Below are positions 1-24,622 of a DNA stretch of 64,000 nucleotides, in pieces. Origin of the DNA: an uncultured Dyadobacter sp. (GTDB lineage Bacteria; Bacteroidota; Bacteroidia; Cytophagales; Spirosomataceae); assembly GCA_963976315.1 (NCBI GenBank), contig CAXBLH010000001.1, positions 968-64,967 on the forward strand. The letters are read 5' to 3'. The translations under genes and the position numbers were made by a program. How positions within the stretch are numbered: the first letter of the stretch is position 1; every line of letters begins with the position of its first letter. A model generated the notes under the pieces. It did no database searches and was not told the DNA's origin. It saw only the letters and a program-made list of their open reading frames with translations.

Positions 1-1044
1 ACCCGACATTTCGCTACCTACTGTTACGCCGCCATGTCCATGGTACACGATATTGTTTTTAATAATGAGGTTTTCACAGGGTACCCCACGGTCTCGCCCG
101 TCTTGGTCTTTTCCTGATTTTATACAAATCGCATCGTCGCCCACATCGAAACTGGAATTTTCAATGATCACGTTTTTGCAAGACTCCACGTCCAACCCAT
201 CACCATTTTGCGAATACCAGGGGTTTCTAACGGTTACGTTTCTTACAATAAGGTCTTCGACCATTAAGGGGTGCAGACACCAAGCAGGGGAGTTTTGAAA
301 TACCGGGCCATCAAATTTTACCCTTTTTGAGTTTTGAATACTTACCATCACCGGACGAAGGAAATCTCTGATCGCCTGGAACTCTGCTTTGGTTTTTAAT
401 TCCAATCGCACATTTTGGTCTGCGCCATTAGCACCCTCTTTAAACTGCTGCGACGGAAACCAGTTTTGATTTTTTTCATCTACTAAGCCACCTGATGCCA
501 CCAATTTTTTCCATTCTGTTTCAGTCAATTTACTCCTTTTTACACTTCGCCACGCTTCACCGGATCCATCCCAAACACCAGTACCAGTAAAGGCAACGTT
601 TTCTAGGTCTTTACCATAGATTGGGGAAATGCACCGCCAAGTATTCAACCCTTCAAAGCTGGTTTCAATAATAGGGTAAAGATCCTTATCCGTTGAAAAG
701 CGAATCAGAGCGCCCGCCGAAGCGTAAATTTCGATGTTACTTTTAAGTATTATAGGTCCTGTTAGCCAAATACCTGCTGGTATTACCACTTTTCCGCCTC
801 CTTTTTTTGATAAGGCATCTATCGCATCGGCTAGGGCTTTGGTATTCAAAAAATCTCCACCACTTTTCGCCCCGAAGTCTTTTATATTGACGGTGTTCTT
901 AGGAATTACGGGTTCCTTTACCAACGCCATTTTAAATTCAATGTCTTGGTACAGCGCAACCTTTTTGCTGGTTTGAGCCGATACACCATTCGCTATCAGC
1001 ATAGCTAGTAGGGTAATGACAGTTGTAATTTTTTTTGATCTCAT
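1..1044 (-). CDS. GH28 polygalacturonase-family glycoside hydrolase (3' end runs off the window)
   Basis: Not in the ORF track; manual minus-strand translation from ATG at 1044 gives signal peptide MRSKKITTVITLLAMLIANGVSAQ, then NIKDFGA..GGGKVVIPAGIWLTGPI and GH28 motifs QNGDGLD, VGDDAICIKSG, GHGGVTVGSE. Confidence 0.92.
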   Translation of the reverse strand, partial: MRSKKITTVITLLAMLIANGVSAQTSKKVALYQDIEFKMALVKEPVIPKNTVNIKDFGAKSGGDFLNTKALADAIDALSKKGGGKVVIPAGIWLTGPIILKSNIEIYASAGALIRFSTDKDLYPIIETSFEGLNTWRCISPIYGKDLENVAFTGTGVWDGSGEAWRSVKRSKLTETEWKKLVASGGLVDEKNQNWFPSQQFKEGANGADQNVRLELKTKAEFQAIRDFLRPVMVSIQNSKRVKFDGPVFQNSPAWCLHPLMVEDLIVRNVTVRNPWYSQNGDGLDVESCKNVIIENSSFDVGDDAICIKSGKDQDGRDRGVPCENLIIKNNIVYHGHGGVTVGSEMSG

Positions 1045-1104: not shown

Positions 1105-2550
1105 CTAAGGAACAATGTTTACAATGATCCTTTTATAGCTGGATAGTCGCGGTTCTCCCTTGTCGGTTACTTTTAAAATAAAATGGGTAGTAACGGGTTT
1201 CTCCACTTTGGGAGCAACAAAATAGGCGCTATGCACATTTTCGACACCGTTAATATTTACCGACTTTTGGTAAGTGCCTGCTTCCGCATAATTGAACCAA
1301 AGGAAACTCAATGCATCGCCATCCGGATCAACGGTATCGAATGCATTCAATCCGAATCCTTGTCCAGACTTAACCGTTATATTTTCTGGATGTTTCAATA
1401 CGATCGTGGGAGCGTGATTTGCTTCTGAATAGGATTTGGTGCACCAATCCATACGGGCAGCAAAATCGTTTTGGAAATCGTCTCTCCAGCGCCATAAGGT
1501 AACCTTGTCATTGGTAAAAGTAGCAGTATCTTTTTTTACGGCACGGCCATATTCACTGGGGATATAAGGCGTGTAACTATCGATGGCGTCGGTCCAAATA
1601 GGTCGGGTTTCAGGAACACATATTACCTTCGAGCCACCTTCTTTTACTTTGGAAAAATCGGGTTTGTATAGTTCGTATCGGCCACCCCATCCGCCCCATT
1701 CTGGGTGTTCCGCGTTATTAAGTCCGTTGGGAATAAGTGATAAAAATGCGGGTGTGTCGCCTTCTACGCCCCATGCTACGTCGGGGTAATGCTGTCCGAG
1801 TGCTCCATGGTTTTGCTGTATATTTTCGGTAATCCAGCTATTGCTAATTTTCGAATTGTTTATTCCTTTAAAAAAGCCGTTAATACCGGTCCAGGTGGCT
1901 GCGCCGTAGTCGTCGCCTGGGCTCACGATATAAAACAAATCGGGGAAATTGTTTCTAATCCAAATACCAGAATCGTCTTGGTCAGAAATGGTATATACCC
2001 TTATTTTGTCAATCAGCTTCTTAGCTTCTGCAGGGCTTTTGGTCTTTTTTATTTTGAACAAAGATTGCGCCAAGGTATTCACGCCACCCCACACAGAAAT
2101 CCAAAGTGGACGGTCGTCATTGGCTTCCAATTCTTTAATGATCCAATCCGAACCTTCCGAATCTTTCCCGTCGCCAACACCCAGCATCCCGTATAACGGA
2201 AGGCCATTTTTAACCAGAGCCATTAGTTCTGCCGATTGAGGGAAACCTGCCTCATGTTTTAAGAGATTAGGCTGCACTTTGTCATAGGCTCTAATTATTT
2301 TTTTAATCGATTCAGGTTCTATTCGGTTATCCAACCAGCAAGAAGTGGTGGCTACAATACCTTGAATATCAATTTGATTGGAGTATAGTAACAAACGTAT
2401 AAGCGATTGCGTGTCATCTACATCTGCTTCAATATCCGTTAAAATGATAACTCTGTTTTTTTGGATCGGTTGGGCAGTAACCCTTATTCCAATGGCAAGA
2501 AGGAGGGTAAGCAGGGTTAGGCGAAGAGACGTGAGTGATTTTGTGGTCAT
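1105..2550 (-). CDS. DUF1593 / Sde182-like nucleoside-hydrolase-fold protein with C-terminal Ig/PKD-like domain, signal peptide (paralog 1)
   Basis: RVIILTDIEADVDDTQSLIRLLLYSN, VWGGVNTLAQ, ISDQDD, EGDTP, GGWGGRY, FQNDFAARMDW, DPDGD. Confidence 0.88.
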   Translation of the reverse strand: MTTKSLTSLRLTLLTLLLAIGIRVTAQPIQKNRVIILTDIEADVDDTQSLIRLLLYSNQIDIQGIVATTSCWLDNRIEPESIKKIIRAYDKVQPNLLKHEAGFPQSAELMALVKNGLPLYGMLGVGDGKDSEGSDWIIKELEANDDRPLWISVWGGVNTLAQSLFKIKKTKSPAEAKKLIDKIRVYTISDQDDSGIWIRNNFPDLFYIVSPGDDYGAATWTGINGFFKGINNSKISNSWITENIQQNHGALGQHYPDVAWGVEGDTPAFLSLIPNGLNNAEHPEWGGWGGRYELYKPDFSKVKEGGSKVICVPETRPIWTDAIDSYTPYIPSEYGRAVKKDTATFTNDKVTLWRWRDDFQNDFAARMDWCTKSYSEANHAPTIVLKHPENITVKSGQGFGLNAFDTVDPDGDALSFLWFNYAEAGTYQKSVNINGVENVHSAYFVAPKVEKPVTTHFILKVTDKGEPRLSSYKRIIVNIVP

Positions 2551-2579
2551 GTTTTGCTTAGGACTATGATTTGATTATC

Positions 2580-3671
2580 TTAATTAAGGTGTTTTTGTTG
2601 CCATGCAGGGTAGGCTTGTAAGGCTCGTGCGGGTCGGGAGGTATACCAGCTATAACCGTTTCTGCGTTCATAACCGATTTCGGACAGGGCACTTTTTTTG
2701 ATACCATCTCTATCGCAGAAGTAAGGTTTTTCAGTATTTAAATCATAAAAACGAGCCCAGAGAGGAGTGGCGTTTTTATCCTTTACCACAATCCGGTTTT
2801 TGGTGTTCTGTGCTGTCATTTCGGTTTCTACTTTTATTCCTTCAATTTTATGCGAATCAAACCAAGTAACAGCACCTTTGATGGCCTCTTTTGTCCGCTG
2901 ATTGGGGTGCTCTATTTGCATTAAAAGTTCTAAAATTCCAACCGACTCACTGCCACTGAAGGAAGGTAATTCGTAACTCCGGGCTTTGGCAGGTAATAGG
3001 GTTTTTTCATCATGTTGGGCGCACCAGACTGTTGGTTTACCTGCTACTTTTATTTGGGTGTCCAAAAAGCATTCAACGCCCTTTTCATAGGATTGAAGGG
3101 CTTTGTTTTTGGTTTTCGGACTGATGTGTAGTGCCATCAATTCGGGGTCGTTTTGATAGACCCTTTTTAAGAAATTCATGATATTAACCATTGCATCGTC
3201 ATTATAAGTAATATGACCAGAATAGCTCACACTGCCCGTTCGTACGGGATAAAATTGTGGCCATCCTCCATTACTATACTGAGAAACAAAAATATAGTTC
3301 AGCGCCTTTTCGAAAGCATTTTTATAGCTTTCTATTTGCGATTGAGAATATACTTTGGCTAAAAAAAGCATTTCGGTGGTGGTAGCGCCATTGTCGAAGG
3401 TAGCCCCAATATCATTTTTTGAGCTTTGATAATGTTCTTGCTCTTCTTGGGTAAATGGTTTATGGTAAGGCTTGTTTTTCTCCCACCCACCAATAGTCTT
3501 CTGGGCAAGTAATACGTTATTGGCAATTGTTTTTGCCTCTGAGGAACCGTACCAAGTTATGGGCATTTTAGTGGCTACGTCATGCCAGCTTTTACCATCG
3601 ATTTGCCCAAATGCACCATGTATAGTGAACAGTATCAGTGCACAAAGGTAGGTTTGTCTATTTTTTCTCAT
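2580..3671 (-). CDS. pelA: Pectate lyase, family PL10 (PelA/Pel-15E type)
   Basis: ATFDNGATTTE, QYSNGGWPQFYP, ITYNDDAM, WCAQHD, PAKARSYELPS, WARFY, ERRNGYSW; signal peptide. Confidence 0.92.
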   Translation of the reverse strand: MRKNRQTYLCALILFTIHGAFGQIDGKSWHDVATKMPITWYGSSEAKTIANNVLLAQKTIGGWEKNKPYHKPFTQEEQEHYQSSKNDIGATFDNGATTTEMLFLAKVYSQSQIESYKNAFEKALNYIFVSQYSNGGWPQFYPVRTGSVSYSGHITYNDDAMVNIMNFLKRVYQNDPELMALHISPKTKNKALQSYEKGVECFLDTQIKVAGKPTVWCAQHDEKTLLPAKARSYELPSFSGSESVGILELLMQIEHPNQRTKEAIKGAVTWFDSHKIEGIKVETEMTAQNTKNRIVVKDKNATPLWARFYDLNTEKPYFCDRDGIKKSALSEIGYERRNGYSWYTSRPARALQAYPAWQQKHLN

Positions 3672-3841
3672 GTCTTTGTAAGTATATCAATATCTTTATT
3701 TACCTTAAAAATTATATAAATCCTTCTATATCCTGAATCGCATTGCATGGCTATTACTCCTTGTCAACAATTTGATGTAAAATCGTTTTCAGGAATGGCC
3801 TGATAGTCGACGGAATTACCAAACTTCTTTAAAAAAAACTA

Positions 3842-5149
3842 CTATTCTTTAATATAGGCCCACCTTTTTGCCCAGTCGGTGAGGTAATCGGTTCTAAATT
3901 TTGAGATGGTACGGGCACCTTGCTGATCCTTAAGGAATAGCGCTGGATGGGGTTGGTCGCCATACCAATTCGGCCCAAGTTTGTAATCGTTTTTATCGGG
4001 TTTTCCTGGCCAAGGTGCAGTACTTACATATTGTCCCTTTAGCTTATCAAGTTGAGATATTGAACTGTGTGTTACATACTTTCCCGATTCTGGTTTTTTG
4101 GAGGAATACCTTGCAGCATAAATTCCGTTCCCAAGATAGAACCCAGGCCATTTTTGATTTTGAATTTCAAGGGTAAAGCATATTGAGTCTGCGGGAATTT
4201 GTAATTTTGGGCCTGTAAAATGCCATTCGATCACGTCATAAGCTGCTACGGTATCCACGGCATTGGAGTTCCCCTTTAAAATATGTCTTGGGCTTGCCTT
4301 GATTTTGGTAAACTGTCCGCCCCAGCTTTCACTCGTGGGGTCGTTGGGATCTCCATTCATCAGATAGGCTAGGGAAGGGGTATCGCCCATTTTAATATGA
4401 CCTTTATAATGGTTTACAAAATTGGCACCCATCGCACCATGTCCCTTGATGAAATGATCATAGTAGGCACCTTCACTCATGTTTTTAGGGGCATTTTCAT
4501 CCTCCATAAACCAGCCTCTATAGGTGGCATTGGCTTCTATCATCCATAAATTGGGGTGATGTTCCGCTATATAAGCATAAGCGTTTACACTCCATTTTTT
4601 ATTGGGGCCACCTATCCAGTATACCCGGATGTTGTTTTCGATCTCGGGTGCGTCATGAAGGGCTTGGGCTACATCTTCTATTCCACCCCATACCAATACC
4701 CATAAAGGTTGTTTGCTTTCCTTTTTGGCGCAAGAAATAATCCATTCCGAGCCTTCGGTACCAGTGGTATAGCCCACAAAAGGAGCCTCTTTTTTTGCAC
4801 CTTGTTTGGTGATTTCTCGGAGAGCATTCGCGGAGTATAAGCCTTCTAAATGTTGTGCCAGTTGTGGCCGGTCTTTTTCATAGAGGTCTATCATATCGAG
4901 AAAGTCCTGTTTGCTACCATTGCCAAATGGCGACGAAATGAGGCCTTCCAGCTGAAATAAGTCGGAATACATCATCAGGTGTATCATCGACTGGAAGTCA
5001 TCTGGGTCTGTACCACCAATATCTGAGCTCACGATCACACGAGGCTTCTCCTCTTTATATGCTGAGGCATTACACTGAAAAAACAAGACTGAGCAGACTA
5101 GTATTACTAACTGAATTATAGGAAACGTATACTGTTGTTTTCTTGCCAT
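3842..5149 (-). CDS. DUF1593 nucleoside-hydrolase-fold protein with a different C-terminal domain (paralog 2)
   Basis: RVIVSSDIGGTDPDDFQSMIHLMMYSD, LVWGG, WIGGPNKKW, KMGDTPS, SWGG; hydrophobic N-terminus. Confidence 0.85.
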   Translation of the reverse strand: MARKQQYTFPIIQLVILVCSVLFFQCNASAYKEEKPRVIVSSDIGGTDPDDFQSMIHLMMYSDLFQLEGLISSPFGNGSKQDFLDMIDLYEKDRPQLAQHLEGLYSANALREITKQGAKKEAPFVGYTTGTEGSEWIISCAKKESKQPLWVLVWGGIEDVAQALHDAPEIENNIRVYWIGGPNKKWSVNAYAYIAEHHPNLWMIEANATYRGWFMEDENAPKNMSEGAYYDHFIKGHGAMGANFVNHYKGHIKMGDTPSLAYLMNGDPNDPTSESWGGQFTKIKASPRHILKGNSNAVDTVAAYDVIEWHFTGPKLQIPADSICFTLEIQNQKWPGFYLGNGIYAARYSSKKPESGKYVTHSSISQLDKLKGQYVSTAPWPGKPDKNDYKLGPNWYGDQPHPALFLKDQQGARTISKFRTDYLTDWAKRWAYIKE

Positions 5150-5272
5150 GAAATTGTACTTAATTAGTCTTTTGTTTTCTTTTAGAGGAACGAATATACA
5201 TAAAAAGAAAAATAAACGAAGAGAAAAGTAAAAAAAAGAAAGAAAAATTAGGATTAATAGTGCTGAAAGGTA

Positions 5273-5280
5273 TACTTTTG
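5273..5280 (+). promoter_or_regulatory. Bacteroidota primary-sigma -7 element (TAnnTTTG) for the rightward pectin operon
   Basis: TACTTTTG in the divergent intergenic region, about 185 nt upstream of ATG 5465. Confidence 0.45.
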
Positions 5281-5464
5281 TCTTGAAAGTATGTAATTAT
5301 TCAGAGTCTTTTCGATGATAACCAATTGACATTGAGTTGTTTGGAATCAAAATCAATTATAATTAGGAAAAATAACTGAGGAATGTGGGTGCTCTCCAAA
5401 TGGATGCTCCTCTTACTTTGAAGCTCAAAAGGCATATTTGGTATTTAATCAATGCGATAGGGAG

Positions 5465-6898
5465 ATGAAAATTAGTTATAATAAAATATATTCCGTTTGT
5501 ATTTTCTTCGTTGGCCTTTTTCTGAATGGGTCAAATACTTTTGCCCAGAAAGGAAAAGTAGTCGAAAGGACTCGGGTCTTAGTAACCTCTGACGGTGAAA
5601 TAGATGATGAATGTTCCTTCGTTCGTTTTTTATTGTATGCCAATGAATGGGATATTGAAGGAATAGTTACCACCAGTTCGCAATACCACTGGCGAGGTCA
5701 CAAATGGGCGGGAGACGACTGGGCACAACCGTATCTAAAAGCCTATGAGGAAGTTTATCCCAATTTGTTAAAACATGACCAACGCTATCCCTCTCCCGAA
5801 TATTTACAGTCCCGAACACTATTAGGTAATGTAGCATCAGAAGGTGAAATGGATGAAAAATCTCCGGGTTCCGAACTGATCGTAAGGGTGCTTTTGGATG
5901 AAACCGACCACCGACCCATTTGGCTACAAGCTTGGGGAGGCACCAATACCATTGCACGTGCGCTGAAAACCATCGAAGAGCAACATCCTGAAAAGATGGA
6001 ATATGTAGCCTCAAAAATACGCTTGTATCTAATTTGGGAACAAGATGAAACCTATCAGCAATATATTAAACCCCACTGGGGTAAGTACAATATACTCACC
6101 ATTATCTCGGATCAGTTTATTGCCTATTTCTATAATTGGAAACAGTTTTTACCCAAAGAGCAGCAGCAGTATTTGGTGGGTTCCTGGATGAAAAATAACA
6201 TACTGACAGAACATGGTGCTTTGTGTTCACTTTATAAAGCCAACGAAAATGGGGATTTTAGATCAGAAGGCGACTCTCCCGCTTTTTTACATACCATTCC
6301 TACTGGTTTGCGCAGTATGGAATCGCCGGATTTTGGTGGCTGGGGGGGCAGGTATGTTAAAATTAGAGCCAATACCTGGATGGATAAGGTGGACGAACAT
6401 GATTATGAGTATCCAGAAGGCAGGTGGTGGACTAAAAATGCCTGGGGAAGGAATCGGATGAAACTGGAAATTCCAAATGATACCCTTTTAACCAATTATA
6501 TGAAACCCATGTGGCAATGGATTGGGGCGATTCAAAATGATTTCGCAGCTCGGGCAGACTGGTGTGTAAATACTTTTGAAAATGCCAACCATCCACCTTC
6601 TGTACTACTGAAAACCCAATTGGATTTACAAGCAAAGGCGGGTCAAAGCATAATGTTAGATGCTAAAGGTACTAGGGATCCAGACGGCGACAGGCTCCAC
6701 TATAAATGGTGGCAATATCAAGAGGCAGGCACTTATCAAGGAGTAGTAAAAATCCCTAATTCTGAAAAACAAAGAACCTCATTTAGGATTCCCCAAAATG
6801 CAAAAAAGGGTGATACCATTTCAGTTATTTGCGAAGTAAGTGATAACGGGACACCAAGTCTTACAAGATACCAACGGGTAATTATCACTATTAAATAA
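5465..6898 (+). CDS. DUF1593 nucleoside-hydrolase-fold protein, signal peptide (paralog 3)
   Basis: ATG at 5465 (MKISYNK) gives a clean signal peptide; VTSDGEIDDECSFVRFLLYAN, AWGGTNTIARAL, SEGDSP, GGWGGRY, QNDFAARADW, DPDGD. Confidence 0.88.
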   Translation: MKISYNKIYSVCIFFVGLFLNGSNTFAQKGKVVERTRVLVTSDGEIDDECSFVRFLLYANEWDIEGIVTTSSQYHWRGHKWAGDDWAQPYLKAYEEVYPNLLKHDQRYPSPEYLQSRTLLGNVASEGEMDEKSPGSELIVRVLLDETDHRPIWLQAWGGTNTIARALKTIEEQHPEKMEYVASKIRLYLIWEQDETYQQYIKPHWGKYNILTIISDQFIAYFYNWKQFLPKEQQQYLVGSWMKNNILTEHGALCSLYKANENGDFRSEGDSPAFLHTIPTGLRSMESPDFGGWGGRYVKIRANTWMDKVDEHDYEYPEGRWWTKNAWGRNRMKLEIPNDTLLTNYMKPMWQWIGAIQNDFAARADWCVNTFENANHPPSVLLKTQLDLQAKAGQSIMLDAKGTRDPDGDRLHYKWWQYQEAGTYQGVVKIPNSEKQRTSFRIPQNAKKGDTISVICEVSDNGTPSLTRYQRVIITIK

Positions 6899-7756
6899 AT
6901 GAAATACAGCATAATAGCACTTTTGCTGGGGTTAAGTATTTGCTCGAAAAACGGTCAAGCACAGGGTCTTGGATTCTTGCAACGTGACGTGAAATATGGC
7001 AGTGTTTCAGGAGAAGATCTTCTTTTGGATGTCCATTCACCTCCTGCTCATGGGCTCTCCCCAATCGCTATTTACGTGCATGGTGGCGGCTGGACAGGTG
7101 GGGATAAGGCTAATACGGGTGATGCGCCTATATTAGAAATGCTTACCAGAGCAGGCTTCACCTGGTTTTCTATCAATTACCGACTGGCCCCCAAATACCG
7201 TTGGCCGGCTTGTGAGGTTGATGTGCAAATGGCTATTCGCTGGGTGAAAGCCAACGGATTGAAATACAAGGGAGACACTTCTCGTATCGTACTCATAGGT
7301 TATTCGGCAGGTGGTCACTTGGCAACTTATGCCCCTACGGTCGTAGATGAAGGTATTCGGGTGCAGGCGCTTGTTGGCTTTTCGCCACTTACGGATTTCG
7401 TACAGGAGCTACCGATGCGCGGTAATATTCTGGGCAGAGCACAACGTGGCCTGCTTAATCGTCCAGAAAAAATAACACCTGAATCGTTGGGGATGTTAAA
7501 AGCCCTTTCTCCAATTAACCATATTCGTCCGGGTATGCCTCCATTTTTAATAGTACATGGCGATGCCGATCAGTCGGTTCCCTTTGCACAAACACTGGCC
7601 TTTCAATCCAAATTACGAGAAAATGGTGTTCGTTGTGATGTGATTACTATACCCAAAGCACCCCATAATATTACAGTATGGAATTCCTATATGCCGGATT
7701 ACAGTAATCAAGTGATTGCTTGGATGAAAGAGGTATTGCGCTCAAAAAATAAATAA
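6899..7756 (+). CDS. Secreted alpha/beta-hydrolase (HSL-type carboxylesterase; probable carbohydrate esterase)
   Basis: HGGGW oxyanion motif, GYSAGG nucleophile, HGDADQSVP acid, C-terminal His (APH); starts directly after the paralog 3 stop codon. Confidence 0.85.
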   Translation: MKYSIIALLLGLSICSKNGQAQGLGFLQRDVKYGSVSGEDLLLDVHSPPAHGLSPIAIYVHGGGWTGGDKANTGDAPILEMLTRAGFTWFSINYRLAPKYRWPACEVDVQMAIRWVKANGLKYKGDTSRIVLIGYSAGGHLATYAPTVVDEGIRVQALVGFSPLTDFVQELPMRGNILGRAQRGLLNRPEKITPESLGMLKALSPINHIRPGMPPFLIVHGDADQSVPFAQTLAFQSKLRENGVRCDVITIPKAPHNITVWNSYMPDYSNQVIAWMKEVLRSKNK

Positions 7757-7802
7757 TGGAGACCGAAAGAAAATTAATTATCATTTAACCATAAACGAAA
7801 TT

Positions 7803-9206
7803 ATGAATAAAATAAAAACATTATTTCTGTTGACTTTGACGATCGTGGGGTTCGCAGGTTATGCGCAGCAACTGGCTTTTCCGACTGCTGAAGGCTACGG
7901 AAAGTATACAAAGGGTGGCCGTGGTGGAACGGTATATGAAGTTACCAACTTAAACGATAGTGGAAAGGGCAGTTTACGTGCAGCGGTAGAAGCAACGGAG
8001 CCACGGACTGTTGTGTTTAGGTTGTCTGGTACCATACAGTTGGAAAGTGCCTTGAGAATTAAAAGTCCTTTTATAACTATTGCCGGTCAGACGGCCCCAG
8101 GGGATGGGATTTGTCTTAAAAAACATCCGTTGATAATTGAAGCGGATCAGGTAATTATTAGGTACCTGAGGGTAAGGTTAGGCAACGAGTCCGGTAATGA
8201 TGACGATGCGGTGTCGAGCAGGTATACCAAAAACATCATTTTGGATCACATTTCGGCCAGTTGGAGTGTAGATGAGACCATGTCCATTTATCATTGCGAT
8301 AGTGTTACCGTGCAGTGGTGTATTGTTTCAGAAAGTATGTTTAACTCTAACCACATCAAAGGAGCGCATGGTTTTGGAGGAATATGGGGTTCTAATTTTG
8401 GTAGCTATCACCATAATCTAATAGCCAACCACGGTAGTCGCAACCCACGGATGGCGTCTGGTTCTGGGTACATGGATTATCGGAATAATGTAGTTTATAA
8501 TTGGGGGTATAACAGCTGCTACGGTGGAGAAAACCAGCAGGTAGGTAATCCTAAGTTTGCAGTTTCGAGATTTAATATGGTGGCTAATTACTATAAGCCC
8601 GGGCCAGGTACAGAGCCGGGAGAAAATTCCTCTCGCATAGCAGCCCCCTCCATGCGAGGCACCACTGATGACTTTGGAAAGTGGTATGTAGCGGAGAATA
8701 TAATGGCAGGCAATGAAAGTGTTTCGGCCGATAACTGGAATGGTGGTGTGCAACCATCTGGTGGCGCAAAGAACTTGAAATACGTAAAAATGGACAAACC
8801 TTGGGAAGCGATGCCAATTAAGCAGCAAACCGCTGAGCAGGCATATCATTTGGTGCTTGCCAATGCAGGAGCAGTTTTACCGAAACGTGATATTGTGGAC
8901 TCTCGTATCGTGGAAGAAGCCAAAAATGGCATCAATACCTATGAAGGTGGATCTTATAAAAAGGGTAGGGAAATCGGTAATCCGGCAGCCAAATCTGGAA
9001 TAATTGATACTCAAAATGATGTCGGTGGTTGGCCGTTATTGAAAAGTGCTACTGCTCCTAAGGATAGTGACCATGATGGGATACCGGATAATTGGGAAAA
9101 GAAACATGGCCTCAATGCAAATAACCCTAAAGATGGGAATCAATTGGATGCCAGTGGTTATACGATGTTAGAGAAATATTTGAATGATGACAAGGTAGGG
9201 CAATAA
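7803..9206 (+). CDS. Pectate lyase, family PL1
   Basis: AFPTAEGYG..TKGGRGG..VTNLNDSG.GSLR, TIAGQTAPGDGI, IILDHISASWSVDE, RNPR, C-terminal DSDHDGIPDNWE. Confidence 0.92.
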   Translation: MNKIKTLFLLTLTIVGFAGYAQQLAFPTAEGYGKYTKGGRGGTVYEVTNLNDSGKGSLRAAVEATEPRTVVFRLSGTIQLESALRIKSPFITIAGQTAPGDGICLKKHPLIIEADQVIIRYLRVRLGNESGNDDDAVSSRYTKNIILDHISASWSVDETMSIYHCDSVTVQWCIVSESMFNSNHIKGAHGFGGIWGSNFGSYHHNLIANHGSRNPRMASGSGYMDYRNNVVYNWGYNSCYGGENQQVGNPKFAVSRFNMVANYYKPGPGTEPGENSSRIAAPSMRGTTDDFGKWYVAENIMAGNESVSADNWNGGVQPSGGAKNLKYVKMDKPWEAMPIKQQTAEQAYHLVLANAGAVLPKRDIVDSRIVEEAKNGINTYEGGSYKKGREIGNPAAKSGIIDTQNDVGGWPLLKSATAPKDSDHDGIPDNWEKKHGLNANNPKDGNQLDASGYTMLEKYLNDDKVGQ

Positions 9207-9302
9207 ACGACGGGTAAGGAAAACTAGGAACTCGAAAAACTTAGTTTGCAGCCCAATACAGTAAGCGGGTTAATTTAAATTGGATACAAAACAGTATATC
9301 GT

Positions 9303-11354
9303 ATGAATACTTATAGGCTAAACAGCAAATTATTTGCAGCCGTATGTTTGGGCTTTTTTGCCAGCTCGTACCAGCTGTGGGCACAAGAAAAATCCCTAGT
9401 CAATACTTCAAAAAGTCCTTATGCAAAACAAGTATCCGTAAATACCGATGCCGTAACGTGGAAGGGTGGTTTTTGGGGACATTGGGCCGATGTGAGCCAG
9501 GATACAATGGCCATCAGTATGCTCCACTTGTATAAGAATGATGCATTGGCGCATGGTCTGAGCAATTTCGAAATTGCCGCTGGTCATAAGCCAGGTAAGC
9601 ATGGTGGGGCACCGTTTCAGGATGGCGATTTCTATAAAACATTAGAAGCCATTACCTCCGTTTATGCGACTACTAAGGAGCAACGGCTTTACAAGGAATT
9701 AGAGCATATTATAAAAGTAATCGGTGAAGCTCAAAGAGCGGACGGATATATTCATACGCCCACACTGATCAGTCAGCGTAACCACCCCAACCCCAAAAGG
9801 GAGTTTCAGGATCGCATGAATTTTGAAACTTATAATATGGGACATTTGATGACGGCCGCTTGTTTGCACTATCGGGTGACGGGCCAAACTAACTTTCTGG
9901 ACATTGCTATCAAAGCCACGGATTTTTTGGTGGCCTACCATGAACATGCCACTGCCGAGCAGGCTCAAAATGCGATTTGTCCTTCTCATTATATGGGTGC
10001 TGTGGAAATGTATCGTACCACTAGAGACAAAAAATACCTTGATTTGGCTCAAAAAATGATCGATATACGTGGCTTGATAAAAGACGGAACCGATCATAAC
10101 CAGGATCGTATCCCTTTTCGTCAGCAAAGGGAAGCGCTTGGCCATGCCGTTCGGGCCAACTATTTATATGCTGGTGTAGCGGATTTATATGCAGAAACCG
10201 GTGAGGATTCCTTATTGGTAGCTTTGGAACGTATTTGGGAGGACGTAGTGACCAAAAAACTATATATAACCGGAGCTTGTGGTGCGTTATACGACGGTGT
10301 GTCTCCCAACGGAACTACTTATAAGCAATCCACTATCCAGCAGGTACATCAGGCTTATGGACAAGCTTACCAGCTTCCCAATATTACAGCTTATAACGAA
10401 ACCTGTGCGAATATTGGCAACGTACTTTGGAATCATCGGATGTTGTTGGCTACTGGAAACGCCCGTTATGCGGATATTTTAGAGTTGAGTTTATTTAATA
10501 GTGTTTTGTCTGGAACCGACCTGGGTGGTACCAATTTTAATTATACCAATCCATTACGGGTCGACCATGCGATTCCTTATGACTTGCGATGGAAAAAGGA
10601 ACGTGAACCCTACATTTCTTATTCTAATTGCTGTCCGCCAAACGTGGTGAGAACCGTAGCTGAGTCGCAAAACTATGCTTATGCTTTGTCCAAAACTGGT
10701 TTGGTAGTAAATCTTTACGGCGGTAATACCTTGAAAACGCGTTTAATCAGTGGTGGTGAATTGGAACTTATTCAGCAGACCGATTATCCATGGGATGGAA
10801 AAATTAAGCTTACAATTCAAAAAGTAACTCATTCAGATTTTGATATCGCCCTGCGCATTCCGGGTTGGGCTACGGATGCCAGTATACGTGTAAACGGAAA
10901 AGCATCTTCGGTTAAAACGGAGTCTGGGAGCTATGCTACTTTAAATCGTGTTTGGAAAACAGGCGACATCATAGAACTGGATTTGCCTATGCCAGCCCGA
11001 CTCATGTCCGCAAATCCACTGGTGGAAGAAACTCGGAATCAAGTTGCAGTAATGAGAGGGCCGATTGTGTATTGTATTGAATCTCCTGATCTTAAAAAGT
11101 TTAATATTTTCGATGTATTGGTTCCGGCAAATATGCAATTAAAGCCTGTTAAGGAACAAGTTGAAGGGGCAAGCCTGACTTTTTTATATGGGAAAGCGAT
11201 GTTGCAAGCACCCAAAACTTGGGAGGGTAATTTGTATCAGCCTATCAGTTCCAAACCGGATTTGAAGGAAGTTGATATTAAACTAATTCCTTACTTCGCT
11301 TGGGGGAATAGAGGAAAGTCGGAGATGTCGGTATGGATACCCTTATTAAAATGA
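9303..11354 (+). CDS. GH127 glycoside hydrolase (beta-L-arabinofuranosidase / aceric acid hydrolase type)
   Basis: PFQDGDFYK, ETYNMGH, GHAVRANY, YNETCANIG, NCCPPN Zn/Cys motifs, QTDYPWDG, LRIPGW, RGPIVY, LIPYFAWGNRG. Confidence 0.92.
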   Translation: MNTYRLNSKLFAAVCLGFFASSYQLWAQEKSLVNTSKSPYAKQVSVNTDAVTWKGGFWGHWADVSQDTMAISMLHLYKNDALAHGLSNFEIAAGHKPGKHGGAPFQDGDFYKTLEAITSVYATTKEQRLYKELEHIIKVIGEAQRADGYIHTPTLISQRNHPNPKREFQDRMNFETYNMGHLMTAACLHYRVTGQTNFLDIAIKATDFLVAYHEHATAEQAQNAICPSHYMGAVEMYRTTRDKKYLDLAQKMIDIRGLIKDGTDHNQDRIPFRQQREALGHAVRANYLYAGVADLYAETGEDSLLVALERIWEDVVTKKLYITGACGALYDGVSPNGTTYKQSTIQQVHQAYGQAYQLPNITAYNETCANIGNVLWNHRMLLATGNARYADILELSLFNSVLSGTDLGGTNFNYTNPLRVDHAIPYDLRWKKEREPYISYSNCCPPNVVRTVAESQNYAYALSKTGLVVNLYGGNTLKTRLISGGELELIQQTDYPWDGKIKLTIQKVTHSDFDIALRIPGWATDASIRVNGKASSVKTESGSYATLNRVWKTGDIIELDLPMPARLMSANPLVEETRNQVAVMRGPIVYCIESPDLKKFNIFDVLVPANMQLKPVKEQVEGASLTFLYGKAMLQAPKTWEGNLYQPISSKPDLKEVDIKLIPYFAWGNRGKSEMSVWIPLLK

Positions 11355-11532
11355 TATTTGAAAATAGACTATTAAATCTTATCAGAAAATGTTATGCTTT
11401 CGGCACCGGCGAAAATATCCCGTATGTCGTTGGGTCGTCCGCCGAAAGTCTACGCCAGTTTTTATCCAAAAGAAATCGTTATAAGGTCTATTAAAAGCAC
11501 CTTTTGATAAAACGCTAATAAATTATAAAAAT

Positions 11533-13002
11533 ATGAAAATCCACCATTTATCAAGAAAGCGTACCACATTGTACCTATTGGTATTCCTGATCAGTCCATT
11601 TTTGAACTGTTTTGGACAAATTGCCAGCATAAAAAAGCAAGATAAGCCGAGAGTGATTGTAACCTCCGACGGTGAAATAGACGATGAATGCTCCATGGTA
11701 CGGTTCTTACTGTATGCCAATGAGTGGGATATAGAAGGCATTATTACTTCCAGTTCCCAGTACCACTGGCATGGACACAAATGGGCGGGGGATGATTGGA
11801 TTGATCCGTATTTGGATGGCTACAGCAAGGTTTATCCCAATTTGGTGAAACATGATAAAGCCTATCCTACGCCTGATTATTTGAAATCCGTAAACTTTTT
11901 GGGCAACGTAGAAACCGAAGGGGAAATGGAGCTAGTAACGCCAGGTTCACAACATATTGTAAAAGTGTTGTTGGATGAAACCGATCACCGTCCTATTTGG
12001 ATTCAGGCTTGGGGGGGTACCAATACCATCGCTCGAGCATTGAAAACCATTGAAGAAAAACATCCTGAAAAAATGGAATATGTAGCCAATAAAATCCGGT
12101 TTTACTTTATTTGGGAACAAGATGCTACCTATCAATCGTATATACGGCCTCATTGGGGGAAATACAATATTTTAACGATAATTTCCGACCAGTTTGAGGC
12201 GCTAGCCTATCGTTGGAAAACAATCCAACCGAAGGAAATGCTCCCTTATTTTGAGGCGAAATGGATGAAAGAAAATATTTTACAAAATCATGGCGCTTTG
12301 TGCTCTCTCTATAAGTCGCATAATTCGGGAGAAAAGGGCTTTGACGAAGGGGATTTTCGGTCGGAGGGAGACTCGCCGGCTTTTATTCATACTATAATCA
12401 CTGGCCTAAGAAGCATGGAATCGCCCGATTGGGGCGGCTGGGGCGGTCGGTTTGTGAAAGTCCGTGAAAATACCTGGTTGGATCCCGTGTCTGAAAAGGG
12501 GTATAATTATCCTAATGGCCGTTGGTATGGAAGTTCGGGCTGGGGGCGCAATGCCACCCGTGAGGGAGCAACGGTTTCTAATAATGAGGTTTATAAAACC
12601 TATTTTAAACCCATGTGGCGTTGGTCGGATGCACTGCAAAATGATTTTGCTGCTCGTGCAGACTGGTGTGTAAAGCCATTCGGTGGAGCAAATCATCCGC
12701 CTATGGTTAAATTGAAAAATGCGCTGAACCGATCTGGAAAGCCAGGTTCCGTAGTAAAGCTGGATGCGGCAGGTACCACCGATCCGGATGGCGACCAGTT
12801 AAGTTTCTCGTGGTGGCAATACCAGGAAGTCGATACCTACCCTAAAGCAGTTTCTGTAAAAAATGCAACGACTAGCAAAGCTTCGTTTGTGATTCCTGTG
12901 GATGCTCAGAGGGGAGATACCATACACATAATTTGTGAAGTGAAAGACGCAGGTAGTCCTTCCTTGACCAGGTACCAAAGGGTAGTAATAGTTGTAAATT
13001 GA
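11533..13002 (+). CDS. DUF1593 nucleoside-hydrolase-fold protein, signal peptide (paralog 4)
   Basis: VTSDGEIDDECSMVRFLLYAN, AWGGTNTIARAL, SEGDSP, QNDFAARADW; closely similar to 5465-6898. Confidence 0.88.
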   Translation: MKIHHLSRKRTTLYLLVFLISPFLNCFGQIASIKKQDKPRVIVTSDGEIDDECSMVRFLLYANEWDIEGIITSSSQYHWHGHKWAGDDWIDPYLDGYSKVYPNLVKHDKAYPTPDYLKSVNFLGNVETEGEMELVTPGSQHIVKVLLDETDHRPIWIQAWGGTNTIARALKTIEEKHPEKMEYVANKIRFYFIWEQDATYQSYIRPHWGKYNILTIISDQFEALAYRWKTIQPKEMLPYFEAKWMKENILQNHGALCSLYKSHNSGEKGFDEGDFRSEGDSPAFIHTIITGLRSMESPDWGGWGGRFVKVRENTWLDPVSEKGYNYPNGRWYGSSGWGRNATREGATVSNNEVYKTYFKPMWRWSDALQNDFAARADWCVKPFGGANHPPMVKLKNALNRSGKPGSVVKLDAAGTTDPDGDQLSFSWWQYQEVDTYPKAVSVKNATTSKASFVIPVDAQRGDTIHIICEVKDAGSPSLTRYQRVVIVVN

Positions 13003-13113: not shown

Positions 13114-13150
13114 AGATGGCATCTTTCAGTAGGTGCCATCTCTTTTTTTT
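13114..13150 (+). terminator. Intrinsic terminator after DUF1593 paralog 4
   Basis: AGATGGCATCT-ttcagt-AGGTGCCATCT followed by C and T8. Confidence 0.8.
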
Positions 13151-13740: not shown

Positions 13741-16700
13741 ATGTTTAAAACTGTACGTTTTTATTCCAATGGAATAAAGAAACCATCCAGTAAGCGGTGG
13801 TTTTGGTGGGCAATTGCAGTGTTAGTGACAGTTTCATTGGAGACCATGGCCCAAAATAAAGTGTCTGGAAAAGTGACTACTGAGGGAGGATTTGGACTTC
13901 CAGGGGCTTCGGTTGTGGTGGATGGCACCAATGTTGGAACCACCACAGACAATGATGGTAACTATTCCATTACGACACCAAAGGGTTCTAAAAGGCTTAT
14001 TTTTAGTTTTATCGGTTATTTGGGTCAAAAAATAGCCATTGATTCTAAGAGTATAATTAATGTAGACCTGAAAGAAGATGCTGCGCAGCTTTCTGATGTA
14101 GTGGTAATTGGCTATGGTACAGTTAAAAAAAGGGATTTAACAGGCGCGGTAACCTCTATCAAAAGTGAGGATATTAAGCAGGTACCTGCCCAAAACCCTC
14201 TAGAATCTATTCAGGGAAAGGTGGCTGGTGTGGATATAACCAGAGGTAGCGGTTCTGCCACTTCAGGGATTAGTATTCGTATAAGAGGTAACCGTTCCAT
14301 CGGAGCAGGAAATGGCCCACTTTTTATAGTGGATGGGATTCAAACTAGCAACATTGATAATATTAATCCGAACGACATCGAATCGATGGAGTTTTTGAAA
14401 GATGCTTCATCCACGGCGATTTATGGCTGGCAAGGAGCTAATGGTATTGTGATTGTTAGTACCAAAAAAGGAGCTTCTGGTAAGCCAAGGGTTAATTTTA
14501 ACATGTATTATGGCGTTTCTCAGGTTTCCAGATATCCTTCGGTTTTGGATGGTCCTGGTTATGTAGCCATCAAAAGGGAAGCGAATAGAGCTGCTGGAAA
14601 ATGGAATTCAGAAACGGATGATGCCGCCATTTTTAACACCCAAGAACTAGCTGCCATAAAGAATGGGGATTGGATCGACTATCAAAAAGAGCTCTTGCAT
14701 AATGGTAGACAACAAAATTACAATGTGGGTGTGAATGCCGGAAGTGATAAAACAAAGGTGTTTTTCTCCCTAGACTATTTCAACGAAAACGGTATTGTTA
14801 AATTTGATCAGGCTAAGCGCTATTCTTTTAGAGCTAATATTGATCAAACCATCAATAGTTGGATCAAAGTGGGGCTGCAAAGTCAGGTAACTTATAGAAA
14901 TGAAAGTTATAGAAGAGATCCTTTGAACATGGCTAATAAGATTATCCCCCTAGGAACCATCTATGATGAAAACGGTATTTTTATCCCCTATCCATTAAGC
15001 GGGTCGTCGATTAGTCCGCTGGCAGATGAGCAGCCGGATGTTTTTTCGAATACAGGAAAGAAAACAAATATTATCTCCAATGCCTATTTCGAAATGAAGC
15101 CTCTGAAAGGATTGACCTTCCGATCTAACTTCGGAGTAAACCTAGGTTATGCACGGATTGGCCTTTTCGAAGCTTCCAATACCATTAGCAGAAATGGAAG
15201 TAATAGCCAATCCTCTATTGCATCTTCTAATAGCAGCTTTATCAATTGGGATAATATCTTAACCTATAATAAAGAAATTGCTGGTCATTCCTTTACAGTA
15301 ACGGCACTGAGTAGCTACGTAGAAAATGTCGCGGAAAGTGTATCCGCACTGGGACAAGGGCAACTTTTGCCTGCTCAGTTATATTATGCGCTGGGCAATG
15401 CCCCAAGCAATATTTCTATAAGTAGTGATTATGAAAAATGGAGTGTTTTGTCTTTTGCTGGACGTTTAAATTACAATTACAAAAGTAAGTATCTATTGAC
15501 CTTAACAAACCGGGCGGATGGAGCTTCCAGACTTTCGGCAGGGAATAAGTGGGCGTTTTTCCCATCTGCCGCAGTAGCTTGGCAAGTAGGGGATGAAGAA
15601 TTCATGAAAGATCAAAATATATTCTCAGACCTAAAGGTGCGACTTAGCTATGGGGTTTCTGGTAATTCAGGTATTTCTCCTTATGGGACACAAAGTACCC
15701 TGGCGCGAGTACCGATGGCTTTTGGTGAAACAAGTTTCCAAGGATTTACATTTTCACCCCTTCTGGGAAATACGGATGCGGGATGGGAGCTTTCCAAAAC
15801 CAAGAACTTAGGTATTGATATGGGCTTCTTCAAAAGTAGGCTGACGGCTAATTTGGATATTTATGATACCCGTACTTCCGACTTGTTGTTACCCCGTGGC
15901 TTACCTCCGACAACAGGAGTAAAAACGGTTTATCAAAATATTGGGAAGACTAGAAACAATGGAGTTGAATTAGGAATTAATTCAGTAAACATTAAAACAA
16001 AGGATTTTAGCTGGAATTCAACATTGACGTTTACTCATAACCGTGAAAGAATTGTTTCGCTGGTTACCGAGGGTATAGATGACATTGGAAATGGATGGTT
16101 CTTAGGTAAACCTATCAGTGTATTTTATGATTATGAAAAATTAGGTATCTGGCAAACGGCTGAGCAAGATCAAGCGGCTTTGTTTGGGCAAAAACCAGGA
16201 GATATCAAGGTGAAGGATCAGAATGGAGATGGTAAAATTGATGCTGTAAATGACAGGGTAGTGTTAGCAGGTGAAAACAGACCGAACTGGTATGGTGGCT
16301 TAAACAACAAAGTAACTTTCAAAGGCTTCGACCTGAGTGTTTATTTGTTTGCTCGTTGGGGACAAACGATCAATCCCTCTTTCCTAGGAAGATACGACCG
16401 CCAGTCCAATCTGAGTAATAGCTCTGCAGCTATTGACTACTGGACTCCAGAAAACCCTACGAATGCGTATCCACGTCCAAATGCTAACATTTCGGGTGCA
16501 TCTACTTTGTATTGGAGTACTATTGGGTATGTAGACGGTTCTTATTTGCGGGTCAGAAACCTTTCATTAGGCTATACTTTTCCAAATTTGAAAAAATCGT
16601 ATTTCAACAATTTACGGTTTTATGTAACGGGCTCAAATCTTATGACCTGGACCAAAAGTTCCAAATTGAAGGAGTATGACCCTGAAAGAGGTGGTGGCGA

Positions 16701-16752
16701 AAGCAGTCCCATGTTGAAAAATGTAGTGGTTGGTCTTAACCTTGGATTTTAA
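13741..16752 (+). CDS. susC: SusC/RagA TonB-dependent transporter
   Basis: CarboxypepD-like N-terminus, VVVIGYGT, PLFIVDG, INPNDIESMEFLKDASSTAIYG, RADGASRL, C-terminal F. Confidence 0.96.
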   Translation: MFKTVRFYSNGIKKPSSKRWFWWAIAVLVTVSLETMAQNKVSGKVTTEGGFGLPGASVVVDGTNVGTTTDNDGNYSITTPKGSKRLIFSFIGYLGQKIAIDSKSIINVDLKEDAAQLSDVVVIGYGTVKKRDLTGAVTSIKSEDIKQVPAQNPLESIQGKVAGVDITRGSGSATSGISIRIRGNRSIGAGNGPLFIVDGIQTSNIDNINPNDIESMEFLKDASSTAIYGWQGANGIVIVSTKKGASGKPRVNFNMYYGVSQVSRYPSVLDGPGYVAIKREANRAAGKWNSETDDAAIFNTQELAAIKNGDWIDYQKELLHNGRQQNYNVGVNAGSDKTKVFFSLDYFNENGIVKFDQAKRYSFRANIDQTINSWIKVGLQSQVTYRNESYRRDPLNMANKIIPLGTIYDENGIFIPYPLSGSSISPLADEQPDVFSNTGKKTNIISNAYFEMKPLKGLTFRSNFGVNLGYARIGLFEASNTISRNGSNSQSSIASSNSSFINWDNILTYNKEIAGHSFTVTALSSYVENVAESVSALGQGQLLPAQLYYALGNAPSNISISSDYEKWSVLSFAGRLNYNYKSKYLLTLTNRADGASRLSAGNKWAFFPSAAVAWQVGDEEFMKDQNIFSDLKVRLSYGVSGNSGISPYGTQSTLARVPMAFGETSFQGFTFSPLLGNTDAGWELSKTKNLGIDMGFFKSRLTANLDIYDTRTSDLLLPRGLPPTTGVKTVYQNIGKTRNNGVELGINSVNIKTKDFSWNSTLTFTHNRERIVSLVTEGIDDIGNGWFLGKPISVFYDYEKLGIWQTAEQDQAALFGQKPGDIKVKDQNGDGKIDAVNDRVVLAGENRPNWYGGLNNKVTFKGFDLSVYLFARWGQTINPSFLGRYDRQSNLSNSSAAIDYWTPENPTNAYPRPNANISGASTLYWSTIGYVDGSYLRVRNLSLGYTFPNLKKSYFNNLRFYVTGSNLMTWTKSSKLKEYDPERGGGESSPMLKNVVVGLNLGF

Positions 16753-21229: not shown

Positions 21230-21235
21230 ATACAA

Positions 21236-21268
21236 TAAGAGCCGTTTGGGAATTCCAAACGGCTCTTA
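21236..21268. terminator. Hairpin between convergent katE and ankyrin genes
   Basis: TAAGAGCCGTTTGG-gaatt-CCAAACGGCTCTTA, perfect 14-bp stem. Confidence 0.8.
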
Positions 21269-21286
21269 ATGTATTGAATGGGAAAT

Positions 21287-21757
21287 TTAAGAAAGAAGTG
21301 CTACGCCCATTTCATTTCCTTGTTGTTGCGCCAAGTCTTTTGCCGAAAGTCCTCGGCTGTCCAGCAAGGTGGTATCTGCACCTCGGTCAATCAATAATTT
21401 AACCAAGTCGTTTCTACCGAACATACAAGCAAACATGAGGGCGGTACCACCATTCCCGTGTTGCATATTAAGTGCTGCACCATTATCTATCAAAAGTTTT
21501 GCGATACCCAGGTAGCCTTTAAACGATGCTCCCATTAATGCGGTATTTCCTCCATAATCGGAAGCGTTGACGTCCGCTCCAGCACTTATAAGTAACTTGG
21601 CTGCCCTCAGATGGTCATTATAGCAGGCAATGATAAGAGGGGTATACCCCTTTTGATCCTGAACGTTGATATTTATTCCACTTTTGATGATTTCCATTAG
21701 CACAGGTACATTCCCTTGTCTTGCGGCATGGATAATTATTTCATTCGTTACTTCCAT
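21287..21757 (-). CDS. Ankyrin-repeat protein (catalase-associated type)
   Basis: Repeats GYTPLIIAC, GNTALMGAS, GGTALMFAC, each followed by LL..GA. Confidence 0.92.
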   Translation of the reverse strand: MEVTNEIIIHAARQGNVPVLMEIIKSGININVQDQKGYTPLIIACYNDHLRAAKLLISAGADVNASDYGGNTALMGASFKGYLGIAKLLIDNGAALNMQHGNGGTALMFACMFGRNDLVKLLIDRGADTTLLDSRGLSAKDLAQQQGNEMGVALLS

Positions 21758-21816
21758 TGTATGAAATTATAAATTAGAGTAGTTTTTTTGTCCATAAAGA
21801 CACTGCTATTTTCCTA

Positions 21817-21831
21817 CCAAAAATTGTTCCA
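21817..21831 (-). promoter_or_regulatory. Sigma54-like -24/-12 element for the ankyrin gene
   Basis: TGGAAC-AATTT-TTGG versus consensus TGGCAC-N5-TTGC. Confidence 0.5.
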
Positions 21832-21875
21832 GCATTTTCTATACCCTCATAGTGAATCTGAAAGAGCAGTACCGC

Positions 21876-21890
21876 TGGTATACTTATTGT
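21876..21890 (+). promoter_or_regulatory. Sigma54-like -24/-12 element for the 21931 operon
   Basis: TGGTAT-ACTTA-TTGT. Confidence 0.5.
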
Positions 21891-21930
21891 AATACCTCTT
21901 CTGTGAACGAGTATTATCCAGATAGCTAAA

Positions 21931-22557: not shown

Positions 22558-22585
22558 TTGAAGATTCACTTAAATCACTGTCCAA

Positions 22586-22996: not shown

Positions 22997-23087
22997 ATTA
23001 CAGTAGGAGCGTTTGTTCAAATTTTAATAATGATACACTTTTTACTGAGCACGTTTTTACTTTATATCCTAATTTTTAATAAACCTA

Positions 23088-24607: not shown

Positions 24608-24622
24608 TGGTATGCGTTTTTT
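24608..24622 (+). promoter_or_regulatory. Degenerate sigma54-like element for the YciF-type gene
   Basis: TGGTAT-GCGTT-TTTT (-12 half imperfect). Confidence 0.35.

Follow-up and report, generated by a model that had tools for sequence, protein, structure and literature searches.

Which task could four exported proteins built like nucleoside hydrolases (NHs) perform in a locus for pectin degradation? The question is raised by a stretch of 64,000 nucleotides from an uncultured Dyadobacter sp. (GenBank assembly GCA_963976315.1, contig CAXBLH010000001.1, positions 968 to 64,967), hereafter the window, in which four genes of the DUF1593 family (PF07632; copies 1 to 4) are interspersed with pectin-degrading genes (Table 1). 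A structure of this family has been available since 2011, yet no reaction has been assigned to it, and the comparative evidence presented here names a candidate substrate and candidate residues. We consider it likely that the role of copies 2, 3, and 4 is tied to apiosylated pectin. The narrower proposal, put forward tentatively, is that the copies cleave apiosides through a modified form of the NH mechanism, as periplasmic Ca2+-dependent apiofuranosidases for apiosylated galacturonan.

Family membership, export and subfamilies

The original prediction, made from the sequence of the window, had placed DUF1593 genes at 1105, 3842, 5465, and 11533, each with an N-terminal export signal. All four open reading frames were found to be uninterrupted, and their products matched PF07632 over model positions 1–268 with 191–371 bits, far above the cut-off of 26.8. 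Each N-terminus combined basic residues with a hydrophobic stretch (maximum 11-residue Kyte-Doolittle value 2.35–3.25), and no further hydrophobic segment was present; the export call, which agrees with the prediction, was made by a rough hydrophobicity test and not by SignalP. Copy 2 could be a lipoprotein, judging from a Cys at position 26. The best score of the four proteins against the NH profile PF01156 was 14.5 bits (cut-off 34.2), and none of them matched the catalytic domain of the GH140 apiosidases (PF13204), a result that bears on membership and not on the proposed reaction. The four proteins are PF07632 members that probably work most like NHs and fall outside the NH family by these tests.

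The catalytic domains of the window copies were 22–35% identical, apart from copies 3 and 4 at 74%, which indicated three old subfamilies (T1, T2, and T34) and not a recent tandem expansion. A quick tree of DUF1593 domains was used only to see the subfamilies as separate groups. The Sde0182_C sandwich (PF21027) was present in copies 1, 3, and 4 and absent from copy 2, where a DUF5060-like sandwich is inserted in the NH fold instead. Two further PF07632 copies were found in the genome, on contigs C129 and C460. The family comprises 2225 clusters at 50% identity (E up to 1e-10) and was carried by 12 of the 160 sampled genomes of the phylum, with one match each; four copies within 12 kb are well above this norm. 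Multi-copy clusters recur within the host order.

Fold, Ca2+ site and catalytic residues

The structure models, predicted by AlphaFold2, cover copies 2 and 4, with predicted local distance difference test scores (pLDDT) of 93.0 and 95.6, respectively. The family reference is PDB 2YHG, the C-terminal region of Sde_0182 (Cbm2C) of Saccharophagus degradans, which consists of PF07632 and PF21027 (Hehemann, Marsters, and Boraston 2011, as cited in PMC8910321 and PMC5294722). Copy 4 matched 2YHG with a Z score of 42.7 and a root-mean-square deviation (rmsd) of 2.0 over 381 aligned residues, and copy 2 with a Z score of 31.7 and an rmsd of 2.6 over 279. Both models also showed the NH core fold, matching the inosine-uridine nucleoside hydrolase (IU-NH) 1MAS with Z scores of 18.3 (copy 4) and 21.1 (copy 2). 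The comparison with IU-NH suggested in the original prediction gave a fold match, within which the Ca2+ site is placed by sequence and fold. In the copy 2 model, the β-sandwich is inserted ahead of the last NH helix and not appended.

In NHs, the Ca2+ ligands are a backbone carbonyl, two Asp of the DxDxxxDD fingerprint, and a third Asp about 230 residues further on. The bound ion grips the ribose at O2′ and O3′, and the leaving group is activated by a His just ahead of the last Asp (PMC8910321). The predicted Asp cluster and GD(S/T)P motif were found in all four copies. The complete fingerprint was found in none of them, since the first Asp was missing throughout; the spacing was exact in copies 3 and 4, and copies 1 and 2 had insertions. 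Across 207 non-redundant DUF1593 domains (copy 4 numbering), the last three fingerprint Asp were conserved at 96–99% (D50 and D51 at 99%), W160 and D280 at 100%, and E278 at 81%. The WGG motif was likewise kept, and the first fingerprint Asp and the catalytic His were not. The downstream Asp, conserved at 100% (D265, D256, D270, and D280 in copies 1 to 4), would be the equivalent of the third Ca2+ ligand by motif and spacing. No His, Trp, or Cys stands just ahead of this last Asp in the four copies; the position is Gly in all of them, with Glu or Met two residues before the Asp. No variation of the Glu was seen within the subfamilies of copies 1, 3, and 4 and of the C129 copy, and the copy 2 subfamily has KM, so that copy 2 reads KMGD where the others read xEGD. 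Taken together, motifs, spacing, and fold, as opposed to a residue-level superposition, suggested that the Ca2+ aspartate equivalents are retained. Since IU-NH cleaves p-nitrophenyl riboside, an O-glycoside (PMC8910321), hydrolysis of O-furanosides is within reach of the NH fold.

Pectin markers in the locus and around related genes

The GH28, PL10, PL1, GH127, esterase, and susC/susD neighbours named in the original prediction were recovered by profile and structure-relative matches, and the SusC/SusD pair together with these carbohydrate-active enzymes (CAZymes) marks a locus for the use of pectin or rhamnogalacturonan II (RG-II). An RG-II-specific enzyme is present, as the GH127 protein passed the aceric acid hydrolase equivalog; it scored 805 bits against 5MQO, and the next GH127 scored 372 bits. 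We take 5MQO to be BT1003 and, likewise, 5MQR to be BT1020. The sugar aceric acid (AceA) occurs in side chain B of RG-II, the core of this chain being AceA-rhamnose-apiose. The complete RG-II enzyme set was not found in the locus, which holds GH127 alone; other contigs carry GH106 and a GH143-like match. The GH143-like match (G000:C249:4713-6451) is split over two reading frames, which may reflect a frameshift, an assembly error, or two genes. The PL1 lyase had no Pfam match, and its score against the PelZ model was below the cut-off. Its closest solved relative, PfPL1, is active on apiogalacturonan, a galacturonan with O3-linked β-D-apiofuranose or short apiose chains (PMC11229556). With three DUF1593 subfamilies beside such a lyase, the locus is a convenient test set.

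The orthologues of copies 3 and 4 were collected from 78 metagenome loci, which form 48 groups below 88% identity, and markers were counted within 10 kb. PL1 was found near 29 of the 48 groups, GH140 near 12, an apiose-type isomerase near 10, and PL10 near 9. Some marker was present in 37/48 groups and in 18/21 where the locus spanned at least 12 kb, and PL1 directly adjoined the orthologue in 26/53 groups. In 20 control windows on xylan GH67 genes, taken from genomes carrying PF07632, none of these markers was found (0/20). In the copy 2 subfamily, 16 of 33 loci held PL1 and 10 the isomerase, many of these loci having been found via copies 3 and 4. A first neighbourhood scan, biased to copy 1 orthologues, showed little pectin context. 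The enrichment with pectin CAZymes, named as a check in the original prediction, holds for particular subfamilies, and the family overall follows GH67 equally.

In several loci (such as L102-104, L206, L218, L231, L221, L069, and L084), between two and six DUF1593 genes occurred together with lyases and either GH140 or the operon described below. The neighbouring GH140 is genuine, with E values of 3e-75 against PF13204 and 4e-49 against the apiosidase 8T9W. DUF1593 fusions to PL10 and GH28 exist, and among the matches listed 9/120 were fused to PF13204; most of these share a single divergent architecture, and one fused PF13204 domain matched 8T9W at 1e-37.

Unassigned proteins recur in the cassettes, namely DUF5060 plus collagen-binding-like proteins in which no catalytic domain was called and a DUF6298-like protein (L102:6186-8165, L231:13721-15376, and L103:5525-6970). 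In L200, L221, and L227, the cassette occurs on contigs that include human-gut metagenome records, with neighbours of the BNR-repeat and GH88/105 type.

The apiose-type operon

The C129 copy faces an operon (L008:642-9854) that encodes a DeoR-like regulator, a fucose-isomerase-family protein, a split transketolase, a substrate-binding protein (SBP), a DUF2291 protein, an ATP-binding cassette (ABC) transporter, and an FGGY kinase. This operon was the commonest conserved neighbour of PF07632 across 152 loci, with records from Bacteroidota, KSB1, Acidobacteriota, and Verrucomicrobiota. Within the operon, between the transketolase and SBP genes, seven loci hold a DUF1593 gene of another subfamily than the window copies. 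A cluster of Escherichia coli SE15 with the same transport, kinase, and transketolase genes supports growth on apiose (bioRxiv 10.1101/2025.09.14.675865). For five proteins of that cluster, the best match in the genome was on C129 (34–45% identity); for its kinase, the C129 match ranked second after another FGGY kinase, and DUF2291 was linked by Pfam only. The SBP, DUF2291, ABC, FGGY kinase, and split transketolase genes, clustered on C129, match those of the D-apiose transketolase pathway. At the position of the isomerase ApsI, a PF02952 fucose-isomerase-family gene is present instead.

The fucose-isomerase-family protein of this operon (L008:642-9854), standing in place of ApsI, is a candidate alternative apiose isomerase; no apiose annotation was found among the names of its relatives. 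In the same genus (L263, L264, and L265), the FGGY kinase is split off into a SusCD/aceric acid hydrolase/GH143-like locus 15–20 kb away. The operon variants L045 and L186 lack DUF2291. In L100, a secreted IU-NH-like protein (10901-11941; PF01156 E 5e-14) follows the DUF1593 gene of the operon, ahead of genes that by eye resemble those of rhamnose catabolism.

At the genome level, all genomes with DUF2291 carried PF07632, both in a set of 250 genomes of the order (11/11) and in the 160 of the phylum (3/3). Among aceric acid hydrolase genomes, PF07632 was present in 10/10 that have DUF2291 and in 1/9 that lack it. Genome-level co-occurrence of PF07632 with PF13204 (9/12) was rejected as specific evidence, as four of the matches were weak and the xylan control GH67 reached 8/12.

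Proposed function and alternatives

Starting from the observed genes, fold, conserved residues, and gene context, we propose a scheme for substrate, metal binding, catalysis, and division of labour. The locus would target apiose-decorated pectin, that is, apiogalacturonan and the apiose-bearing parts of RG-II. The galacturonan would be cut by the lyases, GH28, and the esterase, the fragments imported by SusC/SusD, and aceric acid removed by GH127. The role of periplasmic Ca2+-dependent β-D-apiofuranosidases would fall to DUF1593 proteins, most probably to copies 3 and 4 and possibly to copy 2, and the freed apiose may be imported and catabolised through the ABC-isomerase-kinase-transketolase operon on C129, beside a fifth copy. 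By analogy with the chemistry of NHs, the ligands of Ca2+ would be a backbone carbonyl, two of the fingerprint Asp, and the downstream Asp, which is D280 in copy 4. The ion would grip the cis-2,3-diol, a feature common to apiofuranose and ribofuranose. A water bound to Ca2+ would attack C1 with inversion, and the conserved Glu (E278), two residues ahead of the last Asp where NHs have His or Trp, would protonate the sugar leaving group. The different subfamilies might serve linkages that GH140 may not cut, such as O3-linked apiose, apiose-apiose chains, and lyase products.

Several observations weigh against the apiosidase proposal. Among operon genomes, 7/10 of those tested also had a strong GH140 match and an eighth had a weaker one. 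Copy 1 orthologues were mostly found away from pectin loci: pectin or apiose markers occurred in 11/80 of their loci, and three orthologues lay beside GH67. In the unbiased phylum set, a marker was present in 1/12 PF07632 loci. Fusions to GH10 and to CE15-like, tannase, and GDSL domains also occur, the latter three being about as common as GH140 fusions among the matches listed. Within the order, 32 genomes had a strong match to PF07632; 21 of these lack DUF2291 and 28 have GH67. PF07632 occurs in 28/47 GH67 genomes; co-occurrence with the xylan marker is as strong for the family overall as that with pectin markers, so the family-level link is to plant-wall degraders in general. The p-values and counts overstate independence because the genomes are related. 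Apiose is the presumed sugar of the C129 operon, and the SBP of the operon is closest to the Thermotoga ribose-binding protein 2FN8, followed by 5IBQ. Bacteroides thetaiotaomicron releases the apiose of RG-II with BT1012 alone and secretes it, and no PF07632 match was found in its genome. No activity has been demonstrated for any PF07632 member, as a fungal paper also has it (PMC5294722), and PMC8910321 describes Sde_0182 as retaining Ca2+, inactive on purine and pyrimidine nucleosides, and proposed to be a furanose-interacting or binding module.

A role of DUF1593 as replacement for GH140 was rejected, since most genomes with the operon also have a strong GH140 match. As an apiosidase, DUF1593 must therefore cover other linkages or contexts, and apiogalacturonan fits this better than RG-II. 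The original prediction is partly supported: for three of the window copies (2, 3, and 4), comparison of their subfamilies strengthened both the pectin link and the apiose guess.

Among the alternatives, the copies may be Ca2+-dependent hydrolases of other plant-wall furanosides (arabinofuranosyl or other branched sugars) with subfamily-specific targets, apiose being one case at most. This is unlikely for the set as a whole and most plausible for copy 1, with its orthologues in mixed or xylan-type loci. The GH67 genomes that carry PF07632 and the CE15-like and GH10 fusions agree with it, as do Sde_0182, which has a CBM2 and was detected on xylan (PMC2386152), and an Aspergillus niger homologue co-expressed with CAZymes on wheat straw (PMC5294722). 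Against it stand the 20 control windows, none of which had a DUF1593 gene less than 10 kb from GH67, the chemistry of α-L-arabinofuranose, which has no cis-2,3-diol, and the subfamilies of copies 2–4, which follow PL1, GH140, and the apiose-type operon.

It is rather less likely that the proteins are non-catalytic periplasmic binders, in which the Ca2+ site holds apiose or apiosylated fragments and feeds GH140, the lyases, or the ABC importer. The missing catalytic His, the absence of the conserved Glu from copy 2, the usual presence of GH140, and the subfamily directly adjoining an SBP gene would suit binding, and Sde_0182 and XopQ are NH-fold proteins reported to lack nucleosidase activity. 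Strict conservation of the extra Glu and of a Q-D pair argues for catalysis instead, as do the free-standing genes in many divergent copies and the place of the Sde_0182 domain after carbohydrate-binding modules, where a catalytic domain usually stands; moreover, the operon already has its own SBP.

Action on free apiose or a small derivative (interconversion of ring forms or anomers, or hydrolysis of a lactone or ester) is improbable. Apiose has several furanose forms, and one subfamily is embedded between the transketolase and SBP genes of the catabolic operon; on the other hand, all copies are exported, the window subfamilies abut lyases (copies 3 and 4 next to PL1) and fuse to polymer-degrading domains, and up to seven paralogues would be needless for one such enzyme. 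Opening of the borate-apiose diester that cross-links RG-II dimers, a linkage mentioned in the original prediction, found no support and is very improbable: the cross-link uses the same cis-diol and the locus holds an RG-II marker, but B. thetaiotaomicron degrades RG-II without PF07632, aceric acid hydrolase occurred in only 1/48 orthologue loci, and structural evidence was not found. Nucleoside salvage by exported NHs placed here by chance, which the prediction had doubted, is equally remote, as the NH fold and Ca2+ motif stand against the loss of the first fingerprint Asp and catalytic His, PF01156 scores below cut-off, a consistent carbohydrate context, and the reported inactivity of Sde_0182 on purine and pyrimidine nucleosides (PMC8910321).

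Apiosidase activity is thus the best single explanation, ahead of another furanosidase, binding only, and action on free apiose. Bolder, and held with less confidence than the apiosidase proposal itself, is the idea that DUF1593 may be an unrecognised glycoside hydrolase superfamily on the NH fold, with Glu as general acid and subfamilies as linkage-specific apiofuranosidases; the recurrent cassette of several subfamilies, PL1, PL10, GH140, and apiose catabolism might then represent an undescribed pathway for duckweed and seagrass apiogalacturonan. The apiosidase proposal, if right, would add a Ca2+-dependent O-glycosidase on the NH fold, explain how bacteria debranch apiogalacturonan, a form of seagrass and duckweed carbon, and offer linkage-specific tools for apiose chemistry.

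Organization of the locus and the window

The features of the locus are listed in Table 1. The distance between the start of the locus and the contig end is 340 bp, and the genome is 89% complete. The esterase is a probable pectin de-acylase. Between copy 4 and susC lie a gap of 738 bp and a terminator-like hairpin; promoter and terminator pattern counts in the window were not above those of shuffled sequence. A relative 78% identical to the SusC protein adjoins seven DUF1593 genes in locus L065.

Table 1. Coordinates of the pectin locus within the window, with strand and supporting evidence
Feature	Position	Strand	Evidence
GH28 polygalacturonase-type gene, 5′ part	1..1044 (window <1-1044)	-	PF00295 E 2e-27; 556 aa in contig, cut by window edge
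DUF1593 copy 1, 481 aa, subfamily T1	1105..2550	-	D39/D45/D46, W154, E263-G-D265; Sde0182_C domain; PF07632 E 5e-111
PL10 pectate lyase	2580..3671	-	PF09492 E 2e-107
DUF1593 copy 2, 435 aa, subfamily T2	3842..5149	-	D43/D50/D51, W154, GGPN, KMGD256; PF07632 E 4e-56
AT-rich divergent intergenic region between both gene runs	5150..5464	.	sequence
DUF1593 copy 3, 477 aa, subfamily T34	5465..6898	+	D43/D47/D48, W157, EQD, E268-G-D270; PF07632 E 9e-75
Secreted α/β-hydrolase esterase (BD-FAE type)	6899..7756	+	PF20434 E 7e-45
PL1 lyase, subfamily-2-like	7803..9206	+	closest solved relative PfPL1 (9BUJ), E 9e-63
GH127 aceric acid hydrolase (RG-II side chain B enzyme)	9303..11354	+	NCBIfam NF049879, 1077.6 bits, cut-off 950
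DUF1593 copy 4, 489 aa, subfamily T34	11533..13002	+	D46/D50/D51, W160, EQD, E278-G-D280; PF07632 E 6e-74
Terminator-like hairpin with T-run, 3′ of copy 4	13114..13141	+	pattern match only
SusC-like TonB-dependent transporter	13741..16752	+	profile match
SusD-like lipoprotein	16773..18401	+	profile match

Beyond susD, positions 19040-30883 hold an unrelated block that by eye resembles a stress island, with genes for a catalase, an ankyrin protein, a ferritin-like protein, a glycosyltransferase, and a GH13-like enzyme. An exported protein of 1708 aa at 31786-36912 had no Pfam match above cut-off, and its C-terminus resembles a secretion tail. A second SusC/D locus at 51866-63993 includes a β-helix protein with a GH141 insertion domain (59272-61050) and an unannotated protein of 975 aa.

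Comparison with known systems

The XopQ/HopQ1 effectors (4KL0 and 4P5F) are likewise NH folds without nucleosidase activity (Z 16–19); they are injected by plant pathogens and share neither sequence relation nor context with the window copies. The IU-NHs (PF01156; Crithidia fasciculata 1MAS/2MAS and E. coli RihA/RihB) share the core fold (Z 18–21, rmsd 3.1–3.4 over 230–255 residues), the last three fingerprint Asp, and the downstream Asp 213–234 residues on. They differ in that the window copies are 9–14% identical to them, have Thr, Ser, or Leu for the first fingerprint Asp and Gly for the His or Trp before the last Asp, with Glu one residue further back (Met in copy 2), carry an extra β-sandwich, and are exported.

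The D-apiose transketolase pathway was reportedly described by Carter et al. in 2018. The C129 operon has its SBP, DUF2291, ABC, FGGY kinase, and split transketolase components, and differs in having a fucose-isomerase-family protein in the place of ApsI of Pectobacterium or of two short-chain dehydrogenases/reductases of E. coli. The E. coli SE15 cluster contains no DUF1593 gene, and its identities to C129 are 34–45%. The GH140 β-D-apiosidases (BT1012 and 8T9W; PF13204) perform the reaction proposed here and are frequent neighbours and fusion partners of DUF1593, but belong to an unrelated sequence family, and the activity has been demonstrated for GH140 and not for DUF1593.

The closest known system is Sde_0182. 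Like the window copies, it belongs to PF07632 and has the same fold (E 2e-63; Z 42.7, rmsd 2.0); shared too are the TD..DD, WGG, QD, and EGDxP motifs, secretion, the lack of an assigned reaction, and, for copies 1, 3, and 4, the C-terminal β-sandwich. Its domain comes after carbohydrate-binding modules, whereas the window copies are free-standing in a pectin locus and belong to other subfamilies (structural identity at most 37%), and copy 2 has the inserted sandwich and KMGD. A furanose-active role for the domain had reportedly been suggested already in 2011. We found no paper in the literature that ties PF07632 or the NH fold to apiose. The locus adds the aceric acid hydrolase marker. It also allowed the subfamilies to be tested one by one against a xylan control, and RG-II degraders that have the apiose-type operon to be contrasted with those that lack it.

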